This document shows positions 25,239 through 45,174 of a stretch of DNA of 64,000 bases, piece by piece (positions within the stretch are counted from its first letter, which is position 1; every line of letters starts with the position of its first letter). Under the pieces are notes generated by a model, which saw only the letters and a program-made list of their open reading frames with translations, did not search any database and was not told the DNA's origin. The DNA is taken from positions 50,892-114,891 of the forward strand of contig JAXLYJ010000005.1 of the NCBI GenBank assembly GCA_046351515.1, given 5' to 3'. Source of the DNA: Polyangiales bacterium (lineage in GTDB: Bacteria > Myxococcota_A > Polyangia > Polyangiales > Ga0077539). Position numbers and translations under genes: made by a program.

Positions 25239-26213
25239 GTGAAGGCTCACGAAGCGATTCTGACGGCTGCGCTGAGCGCCGCGCTGATCAGCCGGGCGGG
25301 GGCGGCGCGCGCGCAAAACGCCGGTGAATCGCAGTCGAGTTCGCAAGTGACCGCGCCCGCGCCGCCGTCGTCCGGCGAGGCGAGCGCTGGCGAGCGCGGG
25401 GCAACGACGAGCGCTGCGCAAACGAGCGCTGCGCAAACTGCGCAAACGACGAGCGCGTTCGGCCCGGTGGTCGGGCCATCGGTCGCGCAGGGCGAGCCCG
25501 AGCGGTACGCACGAACGCCGGATCCAACGGGGTGGCAGTACTTCGCGATGCCGGGCGCGCGCACGCTGGCGCAGGGCGATGGCGCGGTGAGCGTCGGCTC
25601 GCTGCTCGGGTGGGTCGCGCTGCGGTACGGAGCGCATCGGCGCGTGGACGTGGGCGTCGGCGTTCCGTACGCGCTCGTGGGGGTGTCGGCGGACGTGCGG
25701 ATCGCGCTCGTGAGCGAGCGCAGCTGGGCGTTGAGCGCGTGGGTGATGGCGCAGGTTCCCGTGCATCCGGGCACGAGCGTGGCTGGAGATTTCTTTGGGT
25801 TTACGTGGGGTGGCGGCGGCGCGTGGGGCGCGGTCGGACCGCTCGTCTCGATCTTCGGCGACCGTGGCGGGGTGCACTTCGGCGCGCACGTCGCGCAGCG
25901 CGTCTCGATGGGCGGACTGTGGGGGCTCGCGCATTTGAGCGCGGACGTGCGCGTCGCTGACGGCGTGAAGATCCTCGGACAAGCGTTGGTCTTCGGAGAG
26001 ATGGTCAACGAGTCGAGCGCCACCGTGGGGCGTCGCGCGTTGATCGGCAATCAGCAGCCGCGCGTGATGCCGTACGGGACGCTCGGCGTGCGATTGTTCA
26101 ATCGCCGGAGCTCCGTGGACGTCGGCGCGCTGGTGATCGTCGGCGAGCGGTCGCTGCTCGCGTACGGATCGGTGTCGGTCTGGCCGTGGCTCAGCGCTGT
26201 GCACGCGTTTTGA
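25239..26213 (+). CDS. secreted hypothetical protein (possible outer-membrane beta-barrel)
   Basis: Signal peptide MKAHEAILTAALSAALISRAGAARA. An S/T/A-rich linker, then alternating hydrophobic beta-strand-like segments rich in G/V/A/W, ending in ...SAVHAF (aromatic C-terminus). Confidence 0.4.
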   Translation: MKAHEAILTAALSAALISRAGAARAQNAGESQSSSQVTAPAPPSSGEASAGERGATTSAAQTSAAQTAQTTSAFGPVVGPSVAQGEPERYARTPDPTGWQYFAMPGARTLAQGDGAVSVGSLLGWVALRYGAHRRVDVGVGVPYALVGVSADVRIALVSERSWALSAWVMAQVPVHPGTSVAGDFFGFTWGGGGAWGAVGPLVSIFGDRGGVHFGAHVAQRVSMGGLWGLAHLSADVRVADGVKILGQALVFGEMVNESSATVGRRALIGNQQPRVMPYGTLGVRLFNRRSSVDVGALVIVGERSLLAYGSVSVWPWLSAVHAF

Positions 26214-26275: not shown

Positions 26276-26869
26276 ATGAACCACGGTTCAGCGAACGGAG
26301 ACCGCTCGGTGCGCGGTGCGCGCGCGCAGGCGCTGCTCGACGGCGTGATGGCGCGGCTCGAGGCTCGCGGCGTCGAGCTCGTGTACAAGAGCGACTCGTG
26401 GTTTCAGCGCGCGATCGATCGAGCGCTGCGCGTGCTCACGTTCGGCGCGATGAGCTCGTACCTCTCGGGCTACGTGACGACCATCGGACGGACGATCTAC
26501 CTGCCCGATGACTGGGAGCTGACCGCGCCGGGGCGTCGGTGGGAGACGCTCGAGCACGAGCTGGTGCACGTCGGGCAGTTCGAGCGCTACGGGTTCGTGG
26601 GGATGGCGGTGCTCTACCTGCTCGTTCCGCTGCCGATGGGGCTGGCGTGGTTTCGCGCGCGGCTCGAATGGGAGGCGTATCGGGTGACGATCCGGTGCGT
26701 GGCGGAGCTCGAAGGGATCGAAGCGGCGAGGGACCGGTCGTTTCGCGAGGAAATCGTCCGGCGATTCACGGGGCCGGACTACGGGTACATGTGGCCGTTT
26801 GCGCGTTCGGTGCATCGATGGATCGAGGGAGAACTCGCGACCATCGAGCGCTCGCACGCGGTACATTGA
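26276..26869 (+). CDS. hypothetical HExxH-motif protein (putative zinc metallo-hydrolase)
   Basis: LEHELVHVGQFERYGF contains HEXXH in a context resembling small predicted metallopeptidase families. Ends 11 nt before the Hsp70 start. Confidence 0.4.
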   Translation: MNHGSANGDRSVRGARAQALLDGVMARLEARGVELVYKSDSWFQRAIDRALRVLTFGAMSSYLSGYVTTIGRTIYLPDDWELTAPGRRWETLEHELVHVGQFERYGFVGMAVLYLLVPLPMGLAWFRARLEWEAYRVTIRCVAELEGIEAARDRSFREEIVRRFTGPDYGYMWPFARSVHRWIEGELATIERSHAVH

Positions 26870-26880
26870 AGGTGAGAGAG

Positions 26881-29800
26881 ATGACTAACCCGATCGCGGT
26901 CGGAATCGATCTGGGAACGACGAACTCCGTCGTCGCCGTCGCGCAAGGCGGACAGCCGCGCGTGCTCACGACTCCCGAAGGGGTCGGCCTGATCCCGAGC
27001 GTGGTGTCCTTCGCTGCGAACGGTCAGACGCTCGTGGGCGCGCCCGCGCGCGCGGCGCGCACAGTGGATCCCGAGAACACCGTGTTCTCTGTGAAGCGCT
27101 TGATGGGCCGGCCGTTCGACTCGGAAGAAGTGCGTCGCGCCGCCGCTCGCTTCGCGTTTCAGCTCGAGCGCGGCCCCGATCAATCGGTCTTGGTTCGCAC
27201 TCGCGCGGGCACGCACACGCTGCCCGAGCTGAGCGCGCTCGTCCTTCGCGAGGTGCGTCGCGTCGCCGAAGCCGCGCTCGGTCAGCCCATCGGGCGCGCG
27301 GTGATCACGGTCCCGGCCAACTTCAACGAGCTGCAGCGCAGCGCCACGAAGCTCGCCGGGCAAATCGCCGAGATCGACGTCGCGCGCATCTTGAACGAGC
27401 CGACCGCCGCCGCGCTCGCCTACGGCTACGGCCGCGGGACGCGCGAGCGCATCGCGGTCTTCGACTTCGGCGGCGGAACGTTCGACGTCACGCTGCTCGA
27501 GCTGTCGGGCAACGTGTTCGAAGTGCTCGCCACCGCAGGGGACACCTTTCTTGGTGGCGACGACATCGACATCGCGCTCGCCGAAGGCCTCGCGGACGGA
27601 GCTTCCAAAGCCCTGCGTTTCGACGCGCGAAAAGACCGCCGCGCGTACGAGCTGCTCCGCGCTGCCGCCGAGCAAGCGAAGATCGACCTCTCGACGCTCG
27701 AGAGCGCGCAGATCAAAGTGCCCAACATCGCGCAGGGGCCTGGCGGTCGAGCGTTGGAGTTTCGCTCGCGCATCGCTCGGTCTGAGTTCGAGAAGGTCGC
27801 GCAGCCGTTTGTGCAGCGAACGATCGACGTGTGCGCCGAGGCGCTCAAGCTCGCGGGCCTGCGCCCCAACGACTTCGCCGCGGTGATCCTGGTCGGTGGT
27901 TCGTCGCAAATCCCGCTCGTTCGCCGGGCGGTTCGCGATTTCTTCCGCAGCGAGCCGCACACTTCTCTTCCGCCCGACACGGTCGTCGGGATGGGCGCCG
28001 CGGTGCTCGCCGAGGCGCTCGGCGGCAAGCGCACGAAGATCACTGGGCAGACGCGCGCGAGCAAATCTCCTTCGGGCGCTCCTCCTTCTGCTTCGCAGAA
28101 CGCGCCCGCGTCGCCGTCGCAAGCGCCGATGTCTGCGGCGGTCGCGGGGCCCATTCCTGCGCCGCCGCTCGCTCCGCACGTGAGCCTCTCGGACGCCGCG
28201 ATGCCCGCGGTTCGACCACCGCAGCAGCCGCTCGCGCCGCCACCTCCGCCACCCCCTCCGATGATGGGAGGCGCCGATCTTCCCGCGGTGTCCGTGAGCA
28301 GCGCTGCGCTGCCGGCGGTCGCTGGCCCTCGTCCAGCGGGGCGCGCGCCGATCAACCGCGGAGCTCCTGCGGCTCCGCCGCCACCGCCGCCGGTCGCGAT
28401 CGCGTCGAGCGAGCCGACCAACGCCTCGGTGACGGGGTTGCCCGCGCTCAAGGCGACGGGTCGAGGCGTGGGCGGCGCGATGGCGCCACCGCCACCACCA
28501 CCGCCACCGCCGTTGCCTCCGATGGCTCCAGACTTCGGCGCGCACTCGGTCTCGGATCTGCCTGCGCTCAAGGGTGCGGGGCTTCCTGCGGTGCCGAAGG
28601 GCGGGCCGATTCCGAGCACGCTGTCGACCGACGGCTTGCCCGCGGTGAAGATCAACGAGAGCGTTGCGGCGTTGCCTGCGGTCGCGCTTCCAAGTGGAGC
28701 TCCTGCGGTGCGTCCGCGCACGTCGACCGAGCCGCACGGCGTGACGAAGCCGAGCTCACCGTCGGACCACGCGATGCCTGCGGTGCGACAAGAGCCCGCG
28801 CCGCCGTCCGCTGGTGCGCCGATGCCCGCGCCGCGGATGCGCACGCGAACGATCACCCATGCGAGCGCGGCGGTTCCGCCGCCCGCGCCGCTTCCGCCGC
28901 CGGGGGCTGCGCTGCCTGGAGCTCCGCCCGCATCGTCGATCGTCCCGCCCAAGCCCGGCGATCTCTCGTGGGCGTCGAGCCAATCGCAGCCGTCGATCTC
29001 CGTGAACCCGTCGTCGATCGTGCCGCTCGATGATGACGATGGCGTGGATCTTCCCAGCATTCCTCGCAGCACAGGAAAGTCCATCCCGGTCGGTCCCGAG
29101 CTCGACGACGCGTTCGGCGACGAGCCAACGGCGATGCACAGCGGCGCGTTGCTCTCGGGCGCGTTGGCCGCGAAGACGGTCCCCAACATCGCGAGCTCGA
29201 CCGACCTTCCGATGCTCTCGCAGAAGGTCGAATCGAAGATCCCGACGCTCACCTCGGTCGACGCTTCGAGCGTCGAGATCCCTGATCGCTTCAAGGCTCC
29301 GCAGGGCTCGCACATCCCGACGCAACCCTCGATTGGGCCGAACGTTCTCGGCTCGATGAAGGGGGCGGCAGACGCGCCGCCCGAGGGCGTCACGACGCTC
29401 AAGCGCATCTCGACGCTCATCGAGGACGCGGACGAGCCCGATCTTCCGGTGCCTTCGGCGCCGAAGGCCGCGCCGATCTTCGGCGGGCAGGCGATTTCGG
29501 TGCCCACGCCGCCGGTGCCTCAGCCTCCGCCCGCGCCCGCGGGGCCATCGGTCAACCCGATGGCCGCAGGGCGTCGCACCGCGGTGATGGCTGCCGCTCC
29601 GCCTCCGCCTCCGCCTCCGATGCCGAGCGCCGCGATGGCGCCGCCGTTTCCGCCGATCGGAGCTGCTCCGCCGCTGCCGCCGGCGCCGCCCCCCATCGCA
29701 TACGCGCCCGATCCCCAGTTCGGCGACCCGTCGTTGCTCACGTCGATGAAGGGCCTGAGCGACACGGACCTGGGATTCGACGCTCCATTGCCGCCTCCGC

Positions 29801-30432
29801 CTCCGCCGGTGCCGCCGGCGATCACGACGGCGCCGATGGGGACCGTCACTGCGCCGAGCGCCGTTCCGAACAGCGCGGGGCACTACGCTCCGCCCGCGTG
29901 GAACCAGCCGCCGATGCCGGCGCCGCCGATGCCGATGCCGCAAGCGCCACAAGTGTCGCAAGCGATGCCGCCGCTCGTGACACCGCAACAGCCGCCGCCT
30001 GCGCCGTCGGTGCGCATGCAGGCGCCGTTGCTGCTCGACGTGACGCCGCAGAGCCTTCGCGTCGAGACCGTGGGCGGGCTGAGCCAGCTCGTGATCGCGC
30101 GCAACTCGACGATCCCGCTCGAGCAGACGCGAGAGTTCGCGACGGCGTACGACAATCAGCAGGACGTTCGCATTCGCATCGCGCAAGGAGAGCAGGCGAA
30201 ATTCGGCGAGAACCAGCCGCTCGGCGAGCTCGAGCTCACGGGCCTGCGTCCTGCGCCGCGCGGCGACGTCAAGATCGCCGTCACCTTCGAGCTCGACGCC
30301 GACGGAACGCTCCGCGTCCGCGCCGAAGACATGCTCACAGGCGCGCAGACCACGGCGCGCATCAACCTTCTCACGATGCCCGGCGGCAACGCGCAAGCGT
30401 CGGCGATGGCCGCGCGTCAGCGAGGGGCGTAG
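26881..30432 (+). CDS. atypical Hsp70/DnaK-family ATPase with a ~690-aa proline-rich low-complexity insertion between NBD and SBD-beta; no helical lid
   Basis: N-terminus VGIDLGTTNSVVAV, phosphate-2 DFGGGTFDVTLLEL, and ILVGGSSQIPLVR form an actin-like NBD (~400 aa). Then PPPPPPP tracts with recurring [DG]LPA[VL] and MPAVR motifs. Then LLLDVTPQSLRVETVGG...VTFELDADGTLRV, a canonical SBD-beta. RBS ggtgagagag before the ATG at 26881. Confidence 0.8.
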   Translation: MTNPIAVGIDLGTTNSVVAVAQGGQPRVLTTPEGVGLIPSVVSFAANGQTLVGAPARAARTVDPENTVFSVKRLMGRPFDSEEVRRAAARFAFQLERGPDQSVLVRTRAGTHTLPELSALVLREVRRVAEAALGQPIGRAVITVPANFNELQRSATKLAGQIAEIDVARILNEPTAAALAYGYGRGTRERIAVFDFGGGTFDVTLLELSGNVFEVLATAGDTFLGGDDIDIALAEGLADGASKALRFDARKDRRAYELLRAAAEQAKIDLSTLESAQIKVPNIAQGPGGRALEFRSRIARSEFEKVAQPFVQRTIDVCAEALKLAGLRPNDFAAVILVGGSSQIPLVRRAVRDFFRSEPHTSLPPDTVVGMGAAVLAEALGGKRTKITGQTRASKSPSGAPPSASQNAPASPSQAPMSAAVAGPIPAPPLAPHVSLSDAAMPAVRPPQQPLAPPPPPPPPMMGGADLPAVSVSSAALPAVAGPRPAGRAPINRGAPAAPPPPPPVAIASSEPTNASVTGLPALKATGRGVGGAMAPPPPPPPPPLPPMAPDFGAHSVSDLPALKGAGLPAVPKGGPIPSTLSTDGLPAVKINESVAALPAVALPSGAPAVRPRTSTEPHGVTKPSSPSDHAMPAVRQEPAPPSAGAPMPAPRMRTRTITHASAAVPPPAPLPPPGAALPGAPPASSIVPPKPGDLSWASSQSQPSISVNPSSIVPLDDDDGVDLPSIPRSTGKSIPVGPELDDAFGDEPTAMHSGALLSGALAAKTVPNIASSTDLPMLSQKVESKIPTLTSVDASSVEIPDRFKAPQGSHIPTQPSIGPNVLGSMKGAADAPPEGVTTLKRISTLIEDADEPDLPVPSAPKAAPIFGGQAISVPTPPVPQPPPAPAGPSVNPMAAGRRTAVMAAAPPPPPPPMPSAAMAPPFPPIGAAPPLPPAPPPIAYAPDPQFGDPSLLTSMKGLSDTDLGFDAPLPPPPPPVPPAITTAPMGTVTAPSAVPNSAGHYAPPAWNQPPMPAPPMPMPQAPQVSQAMPPLVTPQQPPPAPSVRMQAPLLLDVTPQSLRVETVGGLSQLVIARNSTIPLEQTREFATAYDNQQDVRIRIAQGEQAKFGENQPLGELELTGLRPAPRGDVKIAVTFELDADGTLRVRAEDMLTGAQTTARINLLTMPGGNAQASAMAARQRGA

Positions 30433-30434
30433 CC

Positions 30435-30956
30435 GTGCAGAGCGAGTCCGAGCGTCGCGCGCAGTTCGACCTCGTCCGCGAGCAGCTCGACGACCTCGAC
30501 TACTACGCGGTGCTCGGCGTCGCGAAGAGCGCGAGCGCCGAGCAAATCCGCGATGCGTTTCACGAGTTCGCGCTGCTCTTTCATCCCGATCGATACGTCG
30601 ACGACGAGGCGACGCAGCGGCAAGCGCTGCATGTGTTCAAGCGCGGCAGCGAGGCGTATCGGGTGCTGACCAACACGGTCTTGCGGGCGCGCTTCGATCA
30701 GGCGCGCGCGCGCGGCGCGCTGCGGTTGAGCGCGGACGAGATGTTCGCGGGCGTCGATTCAGCGAGCGGCGCCGTCGCAGAGATTCCGCTGCCTCCCGCG
30801 GCGCAAGCGCTGTTCGACAAGGCGACGCAAGCGCTCGAGCGAGGGGACATCAACAACGCCAAGATGCACCTGATGCTGGCGCGCGCGAAGGCGAGCTCGC
30901 CGCGATTCGACGTGCTTCAAGCGCGCATCGACGAAGCGACGTCTCGCAAGCGCTAG
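30435..30956 (+). CDS. J-domain protein (DnaJ-like co-chaperone; J domain only)
   Basis: DYYAVLGVAKSASAEQIRDAFHEFALLFHPDRY has the HPD tripeptide. The GTG start is 3 nt after the Hsp70 stop. ~173 aa. Confidence 0.75.
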   Translation: MQSESERRAQFDLVREQLDDLDYYAVLGVAKSASAEQIRDAFHEFALLFHPDRYVDDEATQRQALHVFKRGSEAYRVLTNTVLRARFDQARARGALRLSADEMFAGVDSASGAVAEIPLPPAAQALFDKATQALERGDINNAKMHLMLARAKASSPRFDVLQARIDEATSRKR

Positions 30957-33143: not shown

Positions 33144-33826
33144 TTACTTCTTCAGCCGCGCTTTGAGTGCGGCGATCTCGTCGTCCAGCTGATCTTTCTT
33201 CTCGCCCTTCTCGAGCTTGCGAAAGCGGTCCTCGAGGTCGGCCTTCTTCGGGTCGTCGAGCAGGTCGTGGGCCTCGGCCTCGGCCTCGAGATTCTCGATT
33301 TTGTCCTGCATTTCTTTGAGGCGGGCGAGCGCGGGGTGGCGCCGCCACCGGCCTTGTCGTTGAGCGGGTCCGAGCCGGGCGTCGTGCGCGAGCGGGCGAC
33401 GGCGGCGGCGAGCGACGAGCGCTTGGCCTTGAGCTCTTCGACCTTCTTCTCCATGGCCTCGATCGAGGCCTTGATGTCTTCGGCGTACGTGGTCTGTTGG
33501 CCACGCAGGCGATCGGCTTCGACCGCGTCCGCTTCGGACTTCTTCTTGCGGCGCAGCGCTTCGCGAGCGAGCTCTTCGTCGCCGTGCTCGAGGGCCATCA
33601 TGGCCTTGCGCTCCCAGTCCTCCGACTCTTTGACGTGGTCGGCGACCTTGCGCTCGAGCTGCTTGACCGAGGCGAGCGCTTGAACGTGCTCTTGCTTGGC
33701 CTTCTTCAGCTCGTCCTGCATGTCTTCGATCGTCTGGGCGATGACCTTGGCGGGGTCTTCGGCCTTGTCGATCAGGCTGTTTACGTTGGCTTTGAGCGAG
33801 CGAGCGAAGCGGTCGAGGATCCCCAT
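33144..33826 (-). CDS. pspA: phage shock protein A (PspA/IM30/Vipp1 family)
   Basis: MGILDRFARSLKANVNSLIDKAEDPAKVIAQTIEDMQDELKKAKQ...coiled coil, in ORF 33152..33877. After one frameshift near 33380 the C-terminus LARLKEMQDKIENLEAEAEA...ALKARLKK is in ORF 33144..34070. Confidence 0.85.
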
Positions 33827-44334: not shown

Positions 44335-45174
44335 ATGACCAAGGGTCCGTCGCCTCTCCTTGGCTACAACACGAACGTTCGGCACAAGGGCCGCGTGTTT
44401 CACATCCAGACCGAGGACTCTGGCGTGCAGCACCCGCACGTCATCACGCACCTGTTCGCGGACGGCGGTCGCATCCTCAAGAGCAACAAGACCAGCTACG
44501 CTGAGCTCGTCGGCGTCGCGGACATGGCCGCGCAGGTCAAAAAGATCATGCAGGACCAGCACAAGGCGATGTTCATCGCGCTGCGTGACGGTCAGTTCGA
44601 TCACTTGTTCGACGCGGCGGGCGGAGACAGCAAAGAGACCAGCGCTCCTTCGGTCTCGGGCGACCTTCTGTCCTCGGCGCAAATGGCCGCGTCCGAGCCG
44701 GCGAAGAAGCAATCCACGCCGGCGATTCCGCCGCCCAAGCCGTCGTTGCCCGCGATCGGCTCGCCTCCGAGCGGCGCGTCCACGGCGCCTCCTGCCGCCG
44801 CCAACGCCGAGTCTCCCAAGCGCAGCTCGTCCGTCTCGATGCCCGCGGTTCGTCCGCCGATGCCGCCGGGCATGACCGCGCCCGAGAGCGCCACGCGCCC
44901 GCCCACGCCGCTGCCCGCTGCGCGCCCTTCGACAGCGCCTCCCTCTGGCGCGGTGAGCCGCCCGCCGCCTTCGCAGCGGCCGCCCGCTCGCCCGTCCGGT
45001 GCGAGCGGACACTACCAAGCGATCCGCTCGCCCGAGATCCTCGGCTCGTTCAAGAAGCACGACGAAGCTGCGGCGCCGGCCAGCATTTTTGGCGACGGAT
45101 TGATGAGCGAGAAGTCCCTCGACGAGGTGATCCTCGCGTACCTCGCCGAGGACCTCGACGAGCCCAAGCGCTGA
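44335..45174 (+). CDS. hypothetical protein: conserved N-terminal ~100-aa domain plus Pro-rich disordered C-terminal region
   Basis: N-terminus LLGYNTNVRHKGRVFHIQTEDSGVQHPHVITHLFADGGRIL (non Arg-rich, coding-like). Then PAIPPPKPSLP...SMPAVRPPMPPGMTAP...PPPSQRPPARP. Acidic end LAEDLDEPKR. Confidence 0.45.
   Translation: MTKGPSPLLGYNTNVRHKGRVFHIQTEDSGVQHPHVITHLFADGGRILKSNKTSYAELVGVADMAAQVKKIMQDQHKAMFIALRDGQFDHLFDAAGGDSKETSAPSVSGDLLSSAQMAASEPAKKQSTPAIPPPKPSLPAIGSPPSGASTAPPAAANAESPKRSSSVSMPAVRPPMPPGMTAPESATRPPTPLPAARPSTAPPSGAVSRPPPSQRPPARPSGASGHYQAIRSPEILGSFKKHDEAAAPASIFGDGLMSEKSLDEVILAYLAEDLDEPKR

Follow-up and report, generated by a model that had tools for sequence, protein, structure and literature searches.

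The window, by which we mean the whole 64,000-nucleotide stretch analysed, carries three closely packed forward-strand genes that encode a small HExxH protein, an Hsp70 and a J-domain protein, followed further downstream by a PspA/IM30 gene on the opposite strand. The features are as follows.

26276..26869, + strand: HExxH protein gene, 197 aa, ending 11 nt before the Hsp70 start
26881..30432, + strand: Hsp70 gene with a disordered pre-linker insert, 1183 aa plus stop, a single uninterrupted ORF
26881..28026, + strand: nucleotide-binding domain (NBD), aa 1-382, aligning to DnaK 5-384, pLDDT > 90
28027..30024, + strand: Pro/Ala-rich insert, predicted to be intrinsically disordered, aa 383-1048, 666 aa
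28198..28788, + strand: nine [DGA][LM]PA[VL] motifs among polyproline runs, aa 440-636
28711..29781, + strand: nine conserved islands of the insert, from a ten-orthologue alignment
30025..30366, + strand: linker PLLLDVTP (aa 1049-1056) and substrate-binding beta-sandwich (SBDbeta, to aa 1162), by alignment to DnaK 389-499
30367..30429, + strand: C-terminal tail of 21 aa, a lid helix A remnant (…SAMAARQRGA)
30435..30956, + strand: J-domain protein gene, 173 aa, GTG start with GAGGGG upstream
30582..30590, + strand: HPD (aa 50-52) of the J domain (~aa 20-92; Pfam DnaJ, 54.6 bits)
30792..30938, + strand: conserved TPR-like helical C-terminal motif of the J-protein, aa 120-168
33152..33823, - strand: PspA/IM30 gene (Pfam E = 3.3e-35)

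Integrity, folded domains and family of the split Hsp70

The Hsp70 gene starts with the ATG at 26881, preceded by AGGTGAGAGAG, and stops with the TAG at 30430-30432. Its product is matched by Pfam HSP70 in two stretches (E = 1.8e-148) and is 100% identical to the NCBI MAG protein P0001, 'Hsp70 family protein [Polyangiales bacterium]'. DnaK was the nearest NCBIfam model (519.7 bits), with a score below the DnaK cut-offs of 648 and 822 bits, and the HscA model gave 472 bits, under its 708-bit cut-off. Low-complexity GC- and proline-rich DNA mis-assembles easily and the window is part of a metagenome-assembled genome, but a mis-assembly, a frameshifted pseudogene or an erroneous fusion of NBD and SBD genes has practically no chance of accounting for the gene and is effectively refuted, because the same open frame is shared by independent assemblies down to 54% identity; the architecture is also uninterrupted in complete genomes of cultured Sandaracinus amylolyticus and in 60 complete gene copies taken from the genomes of different species, no large tandem repeat was found in the insert DNA, its GC3 of 0.80 is coding-like, and purifying selection acts in frame. 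The split gene is thus real and intact, one gene and not two, with no frameshift or stop in the proline-rich tract.

Alignment to E. coli DnaK (PDB 2kho) placed residues 7-382 on DnaK 5-384 and residues 1049-1159 on DnaK 389-499, confirming the complete N-terminal NBD and the C-terminal beta-sandwich proposed by an earlier, sequence-only reading of this DNA. That reading had the linker replaced by ~690 residues; the large junction insert stands, but the DnaK alignment sets its length at 666 aa, and the hydrophobic linker is in fact kept as PLLLDVTP, with the insert just N-terminal to it. In the AlphaFold2 model, pLDDT was 83-93 for the linker and SBDbeta stretch, with the linker itself (aa 1040-1056) below 50. 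The lid is absent, as had been noted, since SBDbeta is followed by a 21-residue helix A stub alone, in which residues 1171-1182 form one short helix matching the start of DnaK helix A and the consensus ..M.ARQ.. is similar to DnaK IQKMVRDAE.

Conservation was then assessed in DnaK numbering. Invariant in 91 family members were the NBD residues D8, K70, E171, D194 and T199, as well as P143, R151, K155, R167, N170 and T173, and D201 was kept in 90 of the 91. Linker D393 and the SBD residues N415, L484, F426 and Q433 were likewise invariant in 91 sequences, and the pocket residue V436 was kept in 90. Linker positions L390-L392, I438 of the pocket, and the NBD-SBD interface formed by an arginine (= K414), N415, D481 and L484 are conserved as well. 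Substitutions relative to DnaK are valine at the arch residue M404, asparagine at Y145 and an invariant proline at V389. As the ATPase, J-binding, linker and interface residues checked are all conserved, the protein probably still works by canonical Hsp70 allostery.

The same plan, with an NBD, an insert of 127-803 aa, and then PLLLDVTP-SBDbeta (~135 aa) lacking a lid, was found in 119 of the 120 best homologues, none of which is a Myxococcus xanthus protein. It recurs, with inserts of 103-667 aa, in the 60 complete genes, which come from Myxococcota of the Polyangiales and Sandaracinaceae; the tail after PLLLD measures 130-144 aa both there and in the 119 homologues. A scan of 185,579 species genomes with the pattern P[LV]L[LV]DVTP[QLH][ST] returned 276 stretches, 263 of them confirmed; nearly all of the best 80 bear the label Myxococcota or one of its older names, with three MAGs carrying other Proteobacteria labels. 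At E <= 1e-30, 162 clusters (50% identity) match the split Hsp70. These comparisons indicate that it is a lineage-specific, DnaK-derived Hsp70 of Polyangiales- and Sandaracinaceae-type Myxococcota, for which no literature study appears to be evident.

The J gene begins 2 nt past the Hsp70 stop codon, adjoining it as first described, if not at the 3 nt then given. In 71 of 76 loci, the gene directly downstream of Hsp70 encodes a homologue that covers J domain and C-terminal motif alike, which bears out the idea of a dedicated chaperone pair, and the J gene is also downstream at L001 and L003-L007. HPD is intact and invariant in 21 J-protein homologues, and a family model search found the DnaJ C-terminal domain and G/F region absent; the description of the protein as essentially a J domain nevertheless leaves out its TPR-like motif. 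The HExxH gene, conserved upstream of Hsp70 in 44 of 57 loci, had been overlooked; its product bears an invariant HExxHxxQ motif (HELVHVGQ at nt 26555-26578) and is a putative DUF4157-like minimal zinc metallopeptidase.

Composition, selection and motifs of the insert

The insert consists of 24.9% proline and 15.9% alanine and contains five runs of at least five prolines (0.46 expected), together with the acidic patches DDDDG, ELDDAFGDEP and EDADEPD, so that the polyproline and acidic features first reported are both present. Its pLDDT of 31-55 and lack of secondary structure in the AlphaFold2 model agree with the disorder proposed earlier, and disorder is predicted for its full length. Its position at the NBD/SBD junction is conserved across homologues. 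Its length is not: it varies from 103 to 807 aa across the whole family and from 553 to 803 aa among close orthologues, with 103 aa being the minimum in every complete family member examined. With a dN/dS of 0.22-0.40, against 0.05-0.15 for the folded domains, the insert is under purifying selection.

The repeated LPA[VL]/MPAVR motifs of the sequence-only reading proved to be far above chance. Nine [DGA][LM]PA[VL] sites (LPAVK, LPALK twice, MPAVR twice, LPAVA twice, LPAVS and LPAVP) were observed against 0.07 expected, all within aa 440-636, and none of 2000 composition-preserving shuffles reached this count. Ten orthologues contain 81 such motifs, LPAVK being the commonest form, and lysine or arginine comes next in 51% versus a 6% background. 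This enrichment is specific to the long-insert clade and therefore unable to explain the insert family-wide; other clades have insert motifs of their own, e.g., G[RK]VALKK and PAGPAFQP[KR]. Ssq1 is also among the Hsp70 binders of the IscU LPPVK pentapeptide. The same peptide has comparable affinities for HscA and DnaK (PMC9596805), and LPAVK differs from it by one residue, LPALK likewise being counted as LPxVK-like. The second proline of LPPVK fills the central pocket of HscA, whereas the insert motifs have alanine at that place.

Conserved short motifs had escaped the earlier reading. Alignment of the orthologues P0001-P0010 (54-93% identity to the query, two rows lacking an identity value) delineated nine islands:

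aa 611-621: RPRTSTEPHGV
aa 650-670: APRMRTRTITHASAAVPPPAP
aa 685-697: SSIVPPKPGDLSW
aa 742-752: DDAFGDEPTAM
aa 784-794: ESKIPTLTSVD
aa 809-819: GSHIPTQPSIG
aa 835-850: EGVTTLKRISTLIEDA
aa 896-913: AGRRTAVMAAAPPPPPPP
aa 947-967: FGDPSLLTSMKGLSDTDLGFD

Even the orthologues that diverge most in the comparison, one of them at 54% overall identity, retain islands such as PRMRTRTIT, EGVTTLKRISTLI and GRRTAVM.

A candidate docking loop and competing explanations

We consider it reasonably probable that the locus encodes a specialised, insulated Hsp70/J pair in which the insert serves as a flexible docking loop that may bind the Hsp70 itself. The module would consist of the Hsp70, a small J-protein of its own and, in the majority of genomes, the small HExxH protein. 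Judging from the conserved residues, the canonical cycle would still be run: linker and SBDbeta would dock onto the NBD with ATP, hydrolysis would be triggered by the J domain and a bound peptide, and linker and SBDbeta would then undock with ADP. The insert would be a long loop at the junction, directly N-terminal to the linker, and in the ADP state the lidless SBD could roam ~20 nm from the NBD (a rough polymer estimate). The effective NBD-SBD concentration would drop to the order of tens of micromolar, making coupling more reliant on the J-protein. Tethering over such a length might, however, leave NBD and SBD functionally uncoupled instead of tuning their coupling.

The insert may also act as a multivalent docking platform. 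In the long-insert clade, its nine LPA[VL][K/R]-type sites appear to mimic the IscU LPPVK, and by this analogy the most likely ligand would be an Hsp70 SBD, either its own or a neighbour's. Binding in cis would make the insert a pseudo-substrate for self-regulation, and binding in trans would build an oligomer or network, as in BiP linker-SBD oligomers. BiP oligomerises through its linker, which is engaged in trans by the SBD (PMC4608358), and the DnaK SBD binds proline-rich peptides (PMC8215388). Self-binding is nonetheless a tentative part of this proposal, with a chance we put at clearly below even; AlphaFold2 placed no insert segment confidently in the SBD groove or NBD cleft, the insert having a low pLDDT throughout (31-55). 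Valine at M404, asparagine at Y145, the clade restriction of LPA[VL] and the alanine in LPxVK were counted against the docking-loop explanation as a whole.

The insert could instead be a largely neutral low-complexity expansion, a passive spacer with motifs as by-products of composition in an otherwise ordinary specialised Hsp70. We judge this unlikely, if with an appreciable chance: the length is hugely variable, motifs differ by clade with none found family-wide, and the insert has 3-6 times the evolutionary rate of the folded domains, but its dN/dS is well short of ~1, at least 103 aa are kept in every complete member examined, islands survive in the most divergent orthologues compared, and neither the shuffles nor the background frequency of lysine and arginine reproduce the motif pattern.

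Another explanation, put forward by the sequence-only reading, is a tether or ruler whose polyproline region, in the manner of FH1/WASP or TonB-type linkers, holds SBD and NBD tens of nanometres apart in polar or envelope complexes, and we give it only a small probability. The proline content and runs suit such a role, as does a disordered, expanded chain with an estimated contour length of ~240 nm and a coil end-to-end distance of ~20-25 nm. The insert length, however, is not conserved even among close orthologues, which argues against a length-measuring role, and a ruler is unlikely. Furthermore, conservation of the NBD-SBD interface residues implies that the insert ends meet in the ATP state. 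The envelope or TonB-like comparison fared no better, as neither the Hsp70 nor the J-protein showed a transmembrane segment, a signal peptide or a localisation domain: mean hydropathy was at most 0.21 in ten 50-residue blocks spanning aa 383-1082, with no membrane segment seen, and the Hsp70 N-terminus leads straight into the NBD with no signal peptide seen. Together with the ATPase domain, these features point to a cytoplasmic protein.

A dedicated role of the pair in remodelling PspA/IM30 oligomers, as chloroplast HSP70B-CDJ2 does on VIPP1, has a slender chance. Here, the TPR-like tail of the J-protein or the Hsp70 insert would recruit PspA. Control of VIPP1 assembly by Hsp70/J has precedent in the literature (e.g., PMC12798727, PMC10602608). 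Besides the gene in the window, 9 related loci, each of them from the two long-insert clades, have a PspA gene in opposite orientation 0.5-3 kb downstream, and at L005 one comes directly after the J gene. Of the 56 genome-scan loci whose downstream sequence extends for at least 3.5 kb, however, 8 have it; as it is encoded on the other strand and most of the family lacks it, its presence may reflect plain synteny.

Relation to known Hsp70 systems

Canonical DnaK (PDB 2kho/4b9q) resembles the split Hsp70 in NBD fold, catalytic and allosteric residues, LLLD linker and SBDbeta pocket, but it lacks the 666-aa disordered insert that separates the final NBD helix from the linker, and its lid is not cut within helix A nor its C-terminal tail missing. 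The pairing of a diverged Hsp70 with a small J-protein in which a J domain is joined to one targeting module recalls HscA-HscB-IscU and HscC-DjlC, and the LPPVK recognised by HscA is one residue off the repeated LPAVK and LPALK. HscA and HscC differ from the split Hsp70 in retaining lids, if shortened ones, and in having nothing inserted at the junction (PMC8215388), and the LPxVK-like sites belong to the split Hsp70's own chain, not to a separate client.

Hsp110 and Grp170 are likewise Hsp70-superfamily members with long disordered insertions. Those of Hsp110 are in the beta-basket and lid, its linker has diverged and J-stimulation is lost (PMC13580251), whereas the split Hsp70 has its insert N-terminal to an intact linker, no lid and intact J-site residues. 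BiP oligomers, a regulatory storage form, are a precedent for an Hsp70 that binds its own or a neighbour's segment in the SBD (PMC4608358); the segment bound in BiP is the short canonical linker, whereas the candidates in the split Hsp70 are multiple insert motifs with inferred binding.

The 'DnaK derivates' of M. xanthus comprise SglK, StkA, MXAN_2747, MXAN_3016, MXAN_5323 (925 aa), MXAN_7025 and PilZ-DnaK. These and the split Hsp70 are all part of the large Myxococcota expansion of Hsp70 paralogues (PMC8265645, PMC13580251); the passages covered hold no description of an insert N-terminal to the linker for the M. xanthus proteins. The link first drawn to StkA/SglK thus holds insofar as all are DnaK paralogues in Myxococcota and fails in detail, given that SglK is a canonical PRK00290-type DnaK (PMC8265645) and the split Hsp70 falls below the DnaK and HscA cut-offs. 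Several of the Myxococcota Hsp70 paralogues have lids that are shortened or missing (PMC8265645, PMC13580251).

Domain plan and conserved machinery of the Hsp70

The Hsp70 gene and its two neighbors are tightly packed on the forward strand of the window:

26276..26869 (+), HExxH gene encoding a 197-aa protein, ending 11 nt before the Hsp70 start
26881..30432 (+), Hsp70 ORF of 1183 aa, ATG start at 26881 preceded by AGGTGAGAGAG, TAG stop at 30430-30432
30435 (+), GTG start of the J-protein gene, 2 nt past the Hsp70 stop, with GAGGGG upstream; 173 aa

The Hsp70 is 100% identical to the NCBI entry of a metagenome-assembled genome (MAG), "Hsp70 family protein [Polyangiales bacterium]", located on a 490-kb contig. 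Pfam HSP70 (PF00012) matched it in two stretches (E = 1.8e-148, 495.9 bits versus a cut-off of 20.6), covering both the nucleotide-binding domain (NBD) and the substrate-binding domain (SBD) and placing the protein among the Hsp70s. Residue-level alignment with E. coli DnaK (PDB 2kho) paired aa 7-382 with DnaK 5-384 and aa 1049-1159 with DnaK 389-499. Because the alignment resumes only at aa 1049, the insert spans aa 383-1048, that is 666 aa. The sequence-only reading, whose observations hold with small corrections and whose interpretation holds only in part, had therefore placed a disordered insertion properly at the interdomain junction while overestimating its length at ~690 aa. It had also taken the usual DVLLLD linker to be replaced, which is not the case: the hydrophobic linker is kept as PLLLDVTP, and the insert lies just N-terminal of it, after the last NBD helix (…AEALGG). 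Past the beta-sandwich there are only 21 residues, with a single short helix (1171-1182 in the AlphaFold2 model) matching the start of DnaK lid helix A, so that the alpha-helical lid is indeed absent, as first described. Lid-truncated DnaK constructs exchange peptide faster, and their ATP-induced release is intact.

The AlphaFold2 model, computed from a 91-sequence family alignment, gave pLDDT values above 90 for the NBD and of 83-93 for the substrate-binding beta domain (SBDbeta). Over aa 383-1056, block averages were 31-55 and no secondary structure was predicted, which rules out a hidden folded domain inside the insert; no docked insert segment was supported in the model either.

Conservation was examined in the same 91 sequences, window protein included, using DnaK numbering. 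Invariant positions comprise those of ATP binding and catalysis (D8, G10, T11, K70, E171, D194, G196-198, and T199), the proline switch and relay (P143, R151, and K155), the J-site (R167, N170, and T173), the linker (L391 and D393), the interface (N415 and L484), and the pocket (F426 and Q433). D201 and the pocket residue V436 are each kept in 90/91 sequences, the K414 position is an invariant arginine, and D481 is an aspartate in 76 of the 91. Among the differences from DnaK are asparagine at Y145, valine at M404, and, at V389, an invariant proline that serves as a family signature. As judged from this alignment, the residues that bind and hydrolyze ATP are intact, as is the interdomain relay. 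By analogy, the protein is expected to work broadly as DnaK does, with ATP-driven docking of linker and SBDbeta and with hydrolysis triggered by J-protein and substrate; reviews expect the same for HscA and HscC by this reasoning (PMC8215388).

DnaK is the closest relative by sequence, yet the protein falls short of the curated thresholds for DnaK and HscA alike. Scores were 519.7 versus 648 bits (NF001413) and 514.6 versus 822.55 bits (TIGR02350) for the DnaK equivalog models, the lid being absent, and 472 versus 708.55 bits for the HscA model TIGR01991. The protein does not fit Hsp110/Grp170 either, since its SBDbeta corresponds to DnaK 389-499 in one stretch and it has no lid; Hsp110 proteins have insertions within SBDbeta, an extended lid, and a diverged linker, whereas the insert described here precedes an intact PLLLDVTP, and linker and J-site are kept. 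In logic, the module comes closest to HscA-HscB and HscC-DjlC. PADLOC models matched neither the Hsp70 nor the J-protein nor the HExxH protein, and a reading as an anti-phage defense system was rejected on this basis.

Composition, selection, and motifs of the insert

The insert consists of 24.9% proline and 15.9% alanine. Runs of at least five prolines occur five times versus 0.46 expected, and [DGA][LM]PA[VL] motifs occur nine times, all within aa 440-636, versus 0.07 expected, a count reached in 0/2000 shuffles. The five runs, of 6-9 prolines each, lie in the Hsp70 gene as follows:

28237-28260 (+), polyproline run
28375-28392 (+), polyproline run
28486-28512 (+), polyproline run
29599-29619 (+), polyproline run
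29791-29808 (+), polyproline run

Polyproline runs make ribosomes stall unless EF-P is present; production of the Hsp70, and of the J-protein whose start follows 2 nt on, may therefore be strongly EF-P-dependent.

Tandem Repeats Finder returned only short repeats in the insert DNA (scores of 58 or less), on which ground a tandem-repeat or assembly artifact was rejected. GC3 of the insert is 0.80, like that of the flanking domains, in window DNA of 70% GC. Orthologues in independent assemblies carry inserts of 553-803 aa in a single open frame (54-93% identity to the query, for rows where the hit table gives a value). Compared with four orthologous loci, dN/dS was 0.22-0.40 for the insert, 0.05-0.08 for the NBD, and 0.08-0.15 for the SBD. 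On these grounds, the insert is translated and constrained.

Ten orthologues share a set of conserved islands in the insert, namely, GGKRTKITG, RPRTSTEPHGV, APRMRTRTITHASAAVPPPAP, SSIVPPKPGDLSW, DDAFGDEPT, ESKIPTLT, GSxIPTQPSIG, EGVTTLKRISTLI, GRRTAVMAAAPPPPPPP, and FGDxSLLTSMKGL…DLGFD. Several of them consist of a short hydrophobic core with basic residues at the flanks, which is, by published rule, the general signature of a DnaK-binding site. Other family clades have insert motifs of their own, including G[RK]VALKK (~15 aa past the NBD), PAGPAFQP[KR], and GSTLGFG. The repeat of the window's clade is best written ΦPAΦ[K/R], with 81 copies across the ten orthologues; K or R directly follows the motif in 51% of the 81 copies versus 6% in the background. 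The commonest pentapeptide, LPAVK, departs at a single position from LPPVK, the invariant loop of IscU that is bound by the SBD cleft of HscA, Ssq1, and DnaK (PMC9596805), and proline-rich peptides are known ligands of the DnaK SBD (PMC8215388). Enrichment of LPA[VL]-type motifs is limited to the long-insert clade, and elsewhere in the 64-kb window only scattered single matches were found. A covariation of the SBD loop change G400->R (QSLR clades) with LPA motifs was tested and dropped, as short-insert proteins bearing R have no such motifs.

The window also contains a 279-aa ORF at 44335..45174 (+), whose N-terminal part looks conserved (…GYNTNVRHKGRVFHIQTEDSG…) and whose Pro/Ala/Ser-rich tail carries SLPAIG and SMPAVR, similar to the Hsp70 insert motifs; Pfam gave no match for it at E <= 0.001.

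Family distribution and gene neighborhood

The same plan, with NBD (~380 aa), proline-rich insert (127-803 aa), and lidless PLLLDVTP-SBDbeta (~135 aa), is common to 119/120 best database homologues. The database records examined give the proteins no names other than "Hsp70 family protein", "molecular chaperone DnaK", and "Chaperone protein DnaK". Scanning 185,579 genomes, one per species, for the pattern P[LV]L[LV]DVTP[QLH][ST] yielded only 276 stretches, 263 of which were confirmed. Nearly all of the best 80 loci come from MAGs labeled Polyangiales, Polyangiaceae, Sandaracinaceae, or older Myxococcota names, and three bear other Proteobacteria labels. In the 60 complete genes from the scan, inserts measure 103-667 aa (median 328). 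An SBD query against 1.84 billion representative proteins returned 162 clusters at E <= 1e-30, and most of the best 150 end a few residues past the SBD. Four proteins matching the SBD in several stretches (P0267, P0273, P0275, and P0357) were discarded as family members, since Pfam shows other Hsp70 architectures or fusions. One of these distant matches from outside the window, P0357 (1205 aa), is an unrelated and unusual fusion that joins an Hsp70 to a Ser/Thr protein kinase domain and includes a stretch weakly resembling GrpE.

Members of the family occur widely among Myxococcota of soil and sediment. In the cultured Sandaracinus amylolyticus the gene is found in synteny, its insert being ~195 aa long. 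In a neighbor-joining tree of the folded parts, the family is monophyletic relative to E. coli DnaK, the sole non-family sequence. Two long-insert clades are sisters in this tree, the window's own with inserts of 652-671 aa and another with 412-611 aa; inserts of the other clades are shorter. Family-wide plan and tree together indicate that the insert is ancestral to the family and has grown longer in the window's lineage.

The J-protein contains a J domain (PF00226, 54.6 bits versus a cut-off of 27.8) whose HPD is invariant in 21 homologues. It was initially described as essentially a J domain lying 3 nt from the Hsp70 gene; adjacency, size, and J domain stand, while the spacing is 2 nt and aa 120-168 form a further conserved motif, A..F..A......GD...A...L.LA....P, with TPR-like spacing. 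There is no G/F region and no DnaJ C-terminal domain (PF01556). DnaJ/CbpA models scored 54-56 bits versus cut-offs of 338-619, so that the protein does not belong to class A or B, and the HscB model scored 24 bits versus 198. Since only the J domain matches, with scores far below the cut-offs, the JGI label "CbpA" on J homologues is unsupported. A homologue with J domain and C-terminal part lies directly downstream of the Hsp70 in 71/76 loci, and in every locus inspected by hand a J gene is downstream, bearing out the proposed dedicated chaperone pair.

The HExxH protein has an invariant HExxHxxQ motif, and a homologue, recognized by motif, is located upstream of the Hsp70 in 44/57 loci, being absent from one short-insert clade. 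Among its 613 homologues, two are labeled DUF4157 in UniRef; eCIS_core/DUF4157 (PF13699) scores for the HExxH proteins were 15.4-18.6 bits, below the cut-off of 22. A PDB profile search returned nothing, the best Foldseek match was abylysin (E = 0.77) among weak zincin-fold matches, and overall no Pfam, PDB-sequence, or PDB-fold match was significant. We consider it a putative minimal zincin (zinc peptidase) and probably the third component of the Hsp70/J module.

Upstream, gyrA precedes the module in the window and in Sandaracinus; with such a position in only 15/50 loci, it reflects synteny rather than functional linkage. Between gyrA and the HExxH gene, a 324-aa ORF at 25239..26213 (+) with no Pfam family begins with a hydrophobic segment resembling a signal sequence and includes a stretch rich in Ser, Thr, and Ala; the family locus L001 has a similar-sized gene without Pfam match at this position. 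Downstream, a PspA/IM30 gene is found at 33152..33823 (-) (Pfam E = 3.3e-35), and also 0.5-3 kb downstream on the opposite strand in the loci L005, L009, L010, L013, L014, L015, L020, L042, and L062. This arrangement is confined to the two long-insert clades and may be plain synteny.

Proposed working and alternative readings

Established for the Hsp70 are intact ATPase and SBDbeta residues, a conserved interface, and the absence of a lid, along with a predicted-disordered insert that is under selection and in which short motifs are conserved, a dedicated J partner, and tight three-gene packing. We favor, with somewhat more belief than doubt, a specialized, insulated, and functional Hsp70/J module in which the insert serves as a flexible docking loop. 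In the ATP state, linker and SBD would dock as in DnaK, and the insert would therefore form a closed loop instead of a rod; with ADP bound, the SBD would be freed on a long leash. A rough polymer estimate suggests an end-to-end distance of ~20-25 nm and an effective NBD-SBD concentration of tens of micromolar, far under that of canonical Hsp70s. With such a leash and so low a concentration, recoupling and hydrolysis would lean more on the J-protein and bound peptide.

As ligands of the lidless SBD, in cis or in trans, the LPAVK-type repeats and the basic-hydrophobic islands would be the most plausible candidates. Binding of the insert motifs by an SBD of their own type is a tentative proposal, and we would sooner bet against it than for it; linker-in-SBD oligomers of BiP offer a precedent for such self-type engagement (PMC4608358). 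The motifs might alternatively recruit the HExxH protein, the TPR-like tail of the J-protein, or another Hsp70. More speculatively, and in our estimate rather unlikely, the insert could serve as a multivalent pseudo-substrate within the chaperone itself: the lidless SBD would bind and release its LPAVK-type and other hydrophobic-basic motifs, in cis or from one molecule to another, under control of ATP and J-protein. If so, the Hsp70 would be an ATP-driven self-remodeling polymer (a switchable tether, gel/condensate, or entropic "bristle") rather than a conventional client-folding chaperone, with the HExxH protein as a possible enzyme for its processing or a partner.

That the insert is a neutral spacer would agree with its plastic length; selection on the insert and its conserved islands argue against this, leaving it a minor contender. 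A ruler or tether, as the sequence-only reading had suggested, is improbable, since the length varies, no anchoring feature is present, and the docking interface is conserved. A chaperone directed at PspA/IM30 would be in line with the nine long-insert loci and with the chloroplast precedent, in which HSP70B-CDJ2 acts on the PspA homologue VIPP1 (e.g., PMC12798727 and PMC10602608), but most of the family lacks the PspA gene and this reading is very improbable. Finally, we give practically no credence to an artifactual Hsp70 architecture: the gene is intact and single, with neither the frameshift or stop separating NBD from SBD nor the repeat assembly artifact that had been named as grounds for abandoning it.

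Hsp70 allostery relies on a very short covalent connection from the NBD to the linker-SBD unit. The family places 100-800 disordered residues at exactly this junction and keeps every checked coupling residue, thus providing a natural experiment on the tethering need of Hsp70 allostery. In passages of papers on M. xanthus Hsp70 paralogues and of a 2026 review of "DnaK derivates", lids are described as shortened or absent and terminal regions as added (PMC8265645, PMC13580251), with no mention there of an insert N-terminal to the linker; nor did a search of open-access literature yield a description of one. This is an uncharacterized, clade-wide Hsp70 architecture with a testable self-binding hypothesis, which the LPPVK-like repeats make concrete and cheap to test. 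Reviewers expect further "functionally insulated JDP/Hsp70 systems" to await discovery (PMC9596805), and the window's Hsp70/J module is an added candidate. Genetics is feasible, since the family is present in the cultivable Sandaracinus.
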